DNA of 64,000 nt, from positions 48,918,001 through 48,982,000 of the forward strand of contig OX597830.1 in assembly GCA_951406725.2 (NCBI GenBank), written 5' to 3'. This DNA comes from Octopus vulgaris (Eukaryota). Below, one piece after another: positions 6,771 to 8,151 of the stretch (within the stretch, counting starts at the first letter, position 1; each line of letters starts with the position of its first letter). Made by a program: the position numbers and the translations under genes. The notes under the pieces were generated by a model that saw nothing but the letters and a program-made list of their open reading frames with translations, was not told the DNA's origin and searched no databases.

Positions 6771-7618
6771 CAAATTTCATCCACATACCCGTGTATATGT
6801 ACACACACGTACACACATACACACTTACATATGGCATTAAATTGCATCCAGTGTTGCGGTGCTTGGGAGTTGTGGGGATCGTGGAGTTACCCCTTCATTA
6901 TCATTACCCCAGGTTCCATCTGATCCGAAACGGTAGTCCCTTTCATGCTCCCGTCTATGGGTCAAGTATATTTTTGTAAGGGTAGACTGAGCTCCTTATC
7001 TGCAAAGAAAGCAATCAATCTAAGAGAAAGTAAGCTCCAAACTTAATACTCCCTTCCAAAATGTCCTAAGCCAGCACGGAAGTGGACGGCTGATGAAACG
7101 ACCATGAAATACGTCCAATAGAATACGTTCACACTACGGAGGCACCTAGTGATAAATTATATGGTTATTGACGATTAAGTCTATTTCGGCATATTTGGCA
7201 TTAGAAATTTTTTCTTTTGCCCTTGTTTATAAATTTAAGCTTTAAAGGTATTTTTTAATATGCTGGCCATTGATAAAATTTTTTATTTCGAAAATTTTTT
7301 ATCTTATATTAGATATATATATATATATATATATATTTAATTAATAAGGGTGAGAGAATTAGATACTAATTTAATAGTATATTTATTCCACACCAAGTGG
7401 CCTAGTGCTACGAGAAACCTGGATTATTATAATATTTTATAACATATTATAATATTTTCACAAAATAAATATAAGAGAGTGGTCACTATATTGATCACTC
7501 TAGCACCAGTTAATCCAAAAGGTTTCAACCACGAAAATACATGTTTCCCATGAAAGCCAGTACGACTGTTAGCTCACACGGACAGGGCAAATAAAAAATA
7601 ACAAAAATACAGATTATT

Positions 7619-7694
7619 TTGGGACAATTGTTTCGCTATTAATGAATTGAATGTAATATTACTTACAATAATCCATTTGTAGCTCGTCAGCCAA
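7619..7694 (-). ncRNA. Type I hammerhead ribozyme, unit 1
   Basis: Minus strand reads TTGG-CTGACGA-GCTA-(41 nt)-TAGC-GAAA-C-AATT-G-TC|CCAA. The core is intact with a GUC site; predicted cut between 7623 and 7622. Confidence 0.92.
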
Positions 7695-8151
7695 GACTAT
7701 CTGGATGAAATCCACTCAATCACACGCCAGATTTTACCATAACGATAAATACGCGTGTGGTTCAATTGATTACATCCGACGTTATAATTCAAATGCCCCA
7801 ACCAACAGCGCGCCAAACTCTCACGGAAAACAAATACAGCATTTAGAAATAAATGCAGCATAATTATAATTAATTAATAAGGGTGAGAGAATTAGATACT
7901 AATTTAATAGTATATTTATTCCACACCAAGTGGCCTAGTGCTACGAGAAACCTGGATTATTATAATATTTTATAACATATTATAATATTTTCACAAAATA
8001 AATATAAGAGAGTGGTCACTATATTGATCACTCTAGCACCAGTTAATCCAAAAGGTTTCAACCACGAAAATACATGTTTCCCATGAAAGCCAGTATGACT
8101 GTTAGCTCACACGGACAGGGCAAATAAAAAATAACAAAAATACAGATTATT

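Follow-up and report, generated by a model that had tools for sequence, protein, structure and literature searches.

How a hammerhead ribozyme whose stem III has only two base pairs would cleave, and which enzymes would copy the element that carries it, are the questions raised by a tandem array in a 64,000-nucleotide stretch of an Octopus vulgaris contig (OX597830.1, positions 48,918,001 to 48,982,000; hereafter the window, whose own numbering is used throughout). The motif is a type I hammerhead (49-nt stem II, palindromic loop III) carried by a young element of the retrozyme type, and the explanation that we hold to be probable is that it would cleave mainly as a double hammerhead and that the element would be copied by Penelope-like elements (PLEs) of the Hydra clade.

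The hammerhead and its tandem units

Reading and scanning of the minus strand revealed a complete type I hammerhead (CUGAcGA/GAAA/GUC) in all seven tandem units at an exact spacing of 533 bp, with the core C3UGANGA9, G12AA, the A15.1-U16.1 pair, H17 and a three-way junction open at stem I. As the first-pass annotation of this DNA had claimed, stem III comprises 2 bp inside the palindrome ACAAUUGU, and the claimed stem I of about 13 bp with two mismatches was likewise recovered: 11 of its 13 positions are paired, including one G.U, and the mismatches are A.A and C.A. The segments that had been assigned to stem II fold together as one interrupted hairpin. The features of the motif and of the surrounding element are:

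7610 to 7703, minus strand: type I hammerhead of unit 1, with stem I formed by 7703-7691 and 7622-7610
7684 to 7690, minus strand (read 7690-7684): catalytic core box CUGACGA; N7 is C here and A or G in sister subfamilies
7635 to 7683, minus strand: extended stem II, 49 nt (fold prediction and sequence reading)
7634-7631, minus strand: GAAA box (sequence reading)
7624 to 7631, minus strand: stem III and loop III palindrome ACAAUUGU, 2 bp plus a tetraloop in the monomer, an 8-bp helix between two copies
7622 to 7623, minus strand: predicted cleavage site after GUC, with C17 at 7623 (hammerhead consensus)
7616, minus strand: U1.7, G.U-paired, candidate partner of loop A at 7639 in a stem I-stem II tertiary contact
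7649, minus strand: U>C bordering an internal loop, the one position at which the hammerheads of the seven units differ (unit comparison)
8164 to 8223, minus strand: hammerhead of unit 2, core to core (scan)
8697-8756, 9230-9289, 9763-9822, 10296-10355 and 10829-10888, minus strand: further copies, core to core (scan)
7332 to 11109, minus strand: tandem arm of 7.07 near-identical 533-bp units, non-coding, 5'-truncated at 11109
7332, minus strand: 3' end B of the tandem arm, fixed, at unit position about 574 and 291 nt past the cleavage site
11104 to 11269, plus strand: inverted short arm, 166 bp, unit positions 277-442, with no complete hammerhead
7305 to 7336, no strand: (TA)n target microsatellite flanking one end of the element (sequence)
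11270 to 11290, no strand: (TA)n target microsatellite flanking the other end of the element (sequence)

The 98-nt motif folds with z = -3.68, and none of 200 shuffles was equally stable; the other CUGANGA...GAAA matches found by scanning the window lack the stems. The substitution at 7649 is the sole hammerhead variant, as had been noted, but its placement at an unpaired position holds only in part: the predicted fold of the majority unit pairs the base with an A, and with the variant this fold is 2 kcal/mol less stable (-11.8 versus -13.8 for the majority). Since the opposite A is a U in sister subfamilies, 7649 nevertheless acts as a loop position across the family.

The genome searched, 2.8 Gb in 227 contigs, contains 2,140 matches to the core pattern of the window family, compared with none for the reversed control pattern. 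Disjoint patterns yield about 5,300 long-stem-II cores in all (2,369 + 1,031 + 1,824 + 84), and the pattern for short-stem cores yields 756. For the 533-bp unit itself there are 905 candidate places; the 40 that were scored hold 248 matches, of which the full-length ones are 98-100% identical. A pattern requiring an extra nucleotide after A9 was discarded after finding a single genome copy, so the usual PLE bulge is absent here. Searches against Rfam returned no match to hammerhead models at the gathering threshold and none at E <= 10, probably because the insert in stem II is so long. This blank result, together with a near-identity of copies that a young family would display without any selection, could also be read as chance or neutral satellite DNA that resembles a hammerhead. 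We consider that highly improbable, because the thousands of cores stand against 0-16 control matches, the dispersed copies bear a retroposition signature, and compensatory change occurs in all three stems (in stem III via the loop, its two pairs being invariant); the covariation results set out below effectively refute it.

The long stem II and the self-complementary loop III among relatives

Stem II of the window hammerhead consists of a 4-bp basal helix (GCUA/UAGC), a 2x2 loop (CA/AA), a middle helix of 8-9 bp, a small loop, a distal helix of 5 bp and a hexaloop, 17-18 bp in total. Its insert alone folds with z = -5.5, and with z = -4.7 after removal of the basal 4 bp. Nearly all of the 64 distinct long stem II inserts (42-65 nt) are more stable than their shuffles (63, with 40 at z < -2), and 56 have the full 4-bp basal helix, in varied sequence. 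In our literature search, no class of PLE or retrozyme hammerheads with an interrupted stem II of 17 bp came to light; Lunse et al. 2017, a work on many variants that might include long-stem forms, and Forster et al. 1988 are reportedly sources on palindromic dimer-cleaving hammerheads (cited in PMC6765202). Metazoan retrozymes have a stem II of 4 bp with a short loop (PMC7229834), and published PLE variants, in which a 'long' helix II means 6-8 bp, usually carry an extra nucleotide after A9 and a short helix I (PMC4209133). The Hydra hammerheads of File S2 in PMC8557442 have a stem II of 3-7 bp, short loops and a loop III that is mostly of odd length. In contrast, the window hammerhead combines 17-18 bp of stem II with a stem I paired at 11 of 13 positions and no extra nucleotide, and the long-stem forms described here have a stem II of 42-70 nt and perfect 8-nt palindromes. 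In the available text of PMC8557442, long loops are confined to two PLE-X motifs of spike moss, and a core spacing of 35-50 nt is marked for eight Naiads; the available text of PMC13282606 on the repeat annotation of octopus describes no hammerheads.

Because a sequence-only alignment that joined the window family with autonomous families misaligned stem II and was set aside, covariation was counted in two separate groups. The first is a related lineage of 42 distinct sequences, in which 12 of 29 pairs changed on both sides, a number that does not exceed that in shuffles (199 of 500); besides the four basal pairs, stem II in its extended part has five with such both-side changes. In this lineage 91.3% of alignment cells are paired, against 33-47% in slid registers, and the covariation score is 0.293 compared with 0.167 after shuffling, bearing in mind that its copies are related and that cells do not equal independent events. 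The second group, the close kin of the window (20 sequences chosen from 42 distinct variants, with singletons mostly omitted), is paired in 96.9% of cells; its stem II changes are nearly all one-sided and pair-keeping, and the only stem II pair changed on both sides rests on a gappy alignment. At the C.A mismatch of stem I, nine of these kin have U-A and two have C-G. The covariation of the extended stem II that had been expected across genomic copies is thus found in related families and is weaker in close kin. The distal hairpins of the two groups (UGUAA/UUACA and UGCAA/UUGCA) are suggestive of a common origin, although their homology is not established.

Loop III is AAUU in 2,135 of the 2,140 window-family cores, a near-fixation that the youth of the family explains by itself, so the count alone does not indicate selection. 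Across relatives, the loop switches among AAUU, GAUC, GUAC, GCGC, CAUG, CUAG, AUAU and ACGU. A pattern for long-stem cores that excludes A from the first loop position and T from the last, and that allows 144 loops, 12 of them palindromic, matched 1,824 cores (control 16); counted by eye, the first 100 listed include 95 perfect palindromes, of eight kinds, with most rows coming from a few families and one row being a chimera of two short motifs. The kinds among the matches listed are GAUC, GUAC, GCGC, CAUG, CUAG, UCGA, UAUA and UGCA. When all 84 cores with a changed inner pair (control 0) were inspected by eye, about 58 were perfect palindromes, 22 were AUGU and hence G.U-compatible, and 4 were neither. 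The outer loop pair of the 42-sequence lineage is A-U in 31 copies, G-C in 8, G.U in 3 and broken in none, and GAUU intermediates are present in young intact elements. Palindromes in 62 of the 64 distinct inserts are not counted as evidence, as this figure is biased by the choice of loci.

These compensatory changes show that self-complementarity, not a particular sequence, is conserved among the homologues. The two pairs of stem III never vary, leaving covariation to stems I and II and loop III, and the core columns are invariant in alignments of relatives, while contigs of other organisms vary at N7, in the hexaloop, in the internal loop and at the C.A mismatch of stem I. Conservation of the core, the cleavage triplet and stem I alongside a freely varying N7 is the pattern of selection for catalysis. 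Stems I and II and loop III covary, and the motif is a real, selected ribozyme architecture.

Single and double hammerheads

In folding predictions for a single unit, the active fold lies 5.6 kcal/mol above the inactive one and stem III has a probability of 0.0002, so that it would hardly form at all. When two units are joined in one RNA, the spacer is predicted to fold back, the strands of stem I to swap and the two palindromes to form an 8-bp helix. This double hammerhead (-188.3 kcal/mol) is favoured over two single ones (-179.6) by 8.7 kcal/mol, in the direction that the first-pass annotation had proposed; all of these energies are secondary-structure predictions that leave out tertiary and Mg2+ stabilisation. 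The inter-unit helix reaches a probability of 0.125 (0.11-0.13) in the window two-unit RNA and only 0.005 between two isolated window motifs. Among 12 family arrays representing four sequence types, it reaches 0.92-0.99 in the subfamilies with A or G at N7 and 0.000 in subfamily L152, and in the N7 = C subfamily of the window an inactive fold, in which the UGAC of the core pairs with the GUC region, is predicted to dominate even in the dimer. Among 30 family representatives, the probability of the monomer stem III exceeds 0.1 in none and is below 0.05 in all, and that of the dimer helix exceeds 0.1 in 19.

We propose that neighbouring units of a multimeric transcript would form the double hammerhead as the main cleaving form. 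Cleavage would release 533-nt monomers, which a host ligase could circularise, and a monomer or circle, having no partner in cis, would be protected against further cleavage.

The first-pass annotation had gone further and made cleavage depend on a multimeric transcript. Folding and palindrome conservation favour the dimer; strict dependence is overstated, given that published single repeats cleave. A stem III of 2 bp with a tetraloop is the usual form of invertebrate retrozymes (PMC7229834; review PMC7761336), and those of coral and mussel cleave as single repeats, at 0.8 and 0.1 per min (PMC7229834). It is therefore conceivable that the 2-bp stem III together with a U1.7/loop-A tertiary contact suffices for cleavage of the monomer and that the palindrome only boosts the rate. 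The basal helix of 4 bp, U1.7 and the loop A next to it are indeed all kept in the window family, as they are in the canonical retrozyme with 353-bp units from this genome. U1.7 and the last A of loop 2 are the nucleotides proposed for an activating stem I-stem II contact (PMC11875169); in the long-stem groups, U1.7 occurs in 22 of 39 and loop A in 19 of 39. Such tertiary and Mg2+ stabilisation is precisely what nearest-neighbour folding ignores. A purely monomeric ribozyme would, however, not need palindromes that persist while both partners change time and again by way of G.U intermediates, the uniformly low stem III values of the 30 representatives also speak against it, and the 2-bp variant of axolotl, of which 22% is cleaved as a monomer, cleaves far better as a dimer (PMC7229834). 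We regard sufficiency of the monomer as unlikely on balance. Against the double hammerhead as the cleaving form, eight of nine Xenopus retrozyme dimers showed no in vitro cleavage (bioRxiv 10.64898/2026.07.22.740005). As published hammerheads of the 2-bp and tetraloop form can cut as monomers, 'dimer-favoured' is a safer description than 'dimer-dependent', and the folding models together with the conserved palindrome make it likely that cleavage of the window hammerhead is dimer-favoured.

The architecture had also been called unusual. This applies to the long stem II; a palindromic weak stem III with pairing between copies and dimer cleavage has long been established in PLEs, in newt and axolotl satellites and in ASBVd (PMC4209133; PMC3088659; PMC6765202; PMC7761336), and the window hammerhead resembles them in this respect.

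As a hint that the hammerhead strand is transcribed and edited, contigs of two small, probably RNA, runs carry clustered A>G changes on that strand (22 T>C versus 2 and 0 A>G), which is expected if it is transcribed and ADAR-edited. In runs X11 and X18, over window positions 7870-8420, contigs have clusters of 11-20 A>G changes on this strand; these clusters resemble what is typical of ADAR hyper-editing of inverted-repeat RNA, which could change the ribozyme core or abolish its activity. The 533-nt cyclic contigs in the probable RNA runs fit a tandem or a circle alike.

The footprint of the element and its putative Hydra-clade helpers

The array in the window contains no ORF, and its unit is low in GC and 69% paired when folded as a circle. 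Non-coding, dispersed tandem repeats with one type I hammerhead per unit are what defines metazoan non-LTR retrozymes (PMC7229834; bioRxiv 10.64898/2026.07.22.740005), with which the element also shares the low GC content, the self-paired unit, the dispersed young copies and the co-occurrence with Penelope-like elements (PMC7229834). Retrozymes have been proposed to be non-autonomous PLE derivatives, and the 533-bp unit fits the lengths of 51-972 bp covered by the 2026 vertebrate retrozyme survey (bioRxiv 10.64898/2026.07.22.740005). Unlike those retrozymes, the window insertions have a two-armed Penelope footprint with two fixed ends in (TA)n and no resolvable TSD. The same genome harbours two further families: one with 353-bp units, a canonical short-stem hammerhead and a UCGA palindrome in tandem and inverted arrays (L119, G000:C1:21555500-21562500), and one with 545-bp units, a 26-nt stem II and a GUAC palindrome, present as 11 copies in one array (L118, G000:C1:33097000-33106999).

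The window locus shows an inverted 5'-truncated arm, a tail at one end and (TA)n flanks, all of the Penelope type. In the 51 loci compared, which were taken from best matches and pattern lists rather than at random, every arm stops at end A or end B, about 160 or 291 nt past the cut; end A, a fixed 3' end, is where the inverted short arm of the window stops. Every one of the 32 two-armed loci combines an end A with an end B (about 2e-10 if the ends were independent), although end A is blurred by run-on into TA, TSDs are unreadable inside (TA)n, and the identity filter removed the second arm of an additional two-armed locus. The 5' ends of 83 arms, by contrast with these fixed 3' ends, are uniform over the unit (KS p = 0.55), with 5 lying within 12 nt of the cut versus 3.9 expected. 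Cleaved ends thus leave no genomic mark, and cleavage-defined 5' ends of genomic copies were rejected. A single monomer circle as the sole template is not supported either: in four two-armed arrays (L144, L149, L154 and L160) out of 23 examined, variants that are polymorphic among units occur in both arms, which points to multimers of mixed units as templates, to switching between templates or to conversion at a later time. The long-arm unit variants of L144 (G000:C1:158285000-158294999) recur with a period of four over two rounds, which suggests that the template was a tetramer or that four units were duplicated together. Some arrays reach 14 full units, with read-through of each hammerhead. 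We hypothesise that the RT would start at two fixed RNA sites, one per cut DNA strand, and would read through uncleaved hammerheads.

That 5' ends ignore the cut site and that long arrays run through the ribozymes would also be in keeping with a motif that is maintained but nearly silent or gated by protein, in which stem II and the dimer helix serve binding or folding for a Penelope RT ribonucleoprotein, cleavage is incidental and uncleaved RNA is inserted. The inactive fold predicted for the youngest subfamily, the occurrence of the long stem II in autonomous and non-autonomous families alike, and the Anolis PLE hammerhead PAc, whose cleavage needs protein and is not required for insertion (PMC11167929), would fit this reading as well. 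Yet a circular template predicts read-through equally, the RT start sites lie 160-290 nt from the hammerhead, and the free variation of N7 contrasts with the conservation of the core, the cleavage triplet and stem I; we consider such silence or gating improbable. The Anolis Poseidon element PAc is nonetheless close in its insertion pattern, with two RT start sites downstream of the hammerhead, an AT-rich target and extension of both DNA strands (PMC11167929); the window pattern differs from it in belonging to a non-autonomous element, in its strict one-site-per-arm rule (32/32) and in a spacing of 131 nt.

Candidate helpers exist in the same genome. The element P0001 encodes an intact 954-aa ORF with RWK, DKT, CxCx5C, CxxC, CxH and C-terminal GIY-YIG-like motifs, is inserted in (TA)n, and is flanked by long-stem hammerheads related to those of the window. 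Its protein has no Pfam match and no PDB match; by its motifs and a by-eye comparison of alignments, it matches the Hydra-clade diagnosis in the available text of PMC8557442. The P0001 RT has 14,364 candidate places in the genome, many with long open frames. Autonomous elements have one hammerhead some 210 nt upstream of their probable ATG and another downstream of the ORF. Of 12 inverted loci of such elements, 10 stop about 35 and 135-157 nt beyond the cut, so that they show a two-end pattern like that of the window family, in agreement with the internal initiation at two sites and extension of both strands described for PAc (PMC11167929). These relatives share with the published Hydra clade the RWK, DKT, CxCx5C and CxxC/CxH motifs, the C-terminal GIY-YIG, the (TA)n targets and the inverted 5'-truncated arms with a tail; they differ in tails of about 100-130 nt versus 30-40 bp and in longer ORFs (about 950-1,090 aa) and units (4.7 kb) (PMC8557442). 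The window element, unlike Hydra-clade elements, has no ORF.

No Hydra-RT match was found beside family A/D loci among 84 loci, the two matches being at family B loci, and none of the 84 loci, nor the surroundings of 17 RT loci, held an autonomous element carrying the 533-bp unit of the window. Outside the hammerhead, the unit has no reliable similarity to the Hydra terminal repeats of the families sampled (one of eight comparisons at z 2.9). The helper is therefore deduced from footprint and architecture, not from descent, and on these grounds the window element was likely moved by Hydra-clade Penelope enzymes. Its long stem II may be a loop 2 insertion inherited from, or common to, a Penelope terminal repeat, with the basal geometry kept.

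Other coding elements were met along the way. A large Hydra-clade family with ORFs of about 950-1,090 aa and an Asn-rich insert (L083:4463-7327, L101, L116, L120) goes undetected by Pfam and is apparently active; its youngest copies carry the wobble palindrome GAUU. An RT group of 62-63% identity with open frames of 700-940 aa (L109-L113) has no hammerhead matching the patterns used, and Penelope-like RT/GIY-YIG ORFs of a different clade are inserted beside hammerhead elements (L063:6189-7709, L088:4383-6056, L090). Four stretches of the window itself (644-1060, 19865-20296, 21282-21731 and 59892-60521) contain fragments that look like a zinc-knuckle ORF1, the C-terminus of a LINE and transposases of the Tc1/mariner type.

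In summary, palindromic dimer hammerheads and retrozymes were already known, and what is new is the class with a long, covarying stem II and its link to Hydra elements. More tentatively, and less probably than not, long-stem-II palindromic hammerheads could constitute a distinct, widespread and search-invisible subclass common to Hydra elements and their non-coding parasites, in which the 42-70 nt arm would be a functional module (for RT or chaperone binding, or as a dimer-folding switch) and the palindromes a family pairing code that limits double-hammerhead cleavage to RNAs belonging to one family. Given that Rfam misses thousands of these ribozymes and that the relaxed core search of PMC8557442 allowed a spacer of only 7-17 nt, counts of hammerheads in animals are probably too low. 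The role of PLE hammerheads and the enzyme that spreads animal retrozymes are standing questions (PMC7229834, PMC7761336, PMC11167929). In one octopus genome, a young parasite occurs alongside intact ORFs of candidate helpers and natural swaps of the palindrome, which makes dimer dependence, partner specificity and trans-mobilisation directly testable. If the proposed subclass is real, it would, together with the rule of one start site per strand, offer a natural system for testing the mobilisation of retrozymes by Penelope elements.
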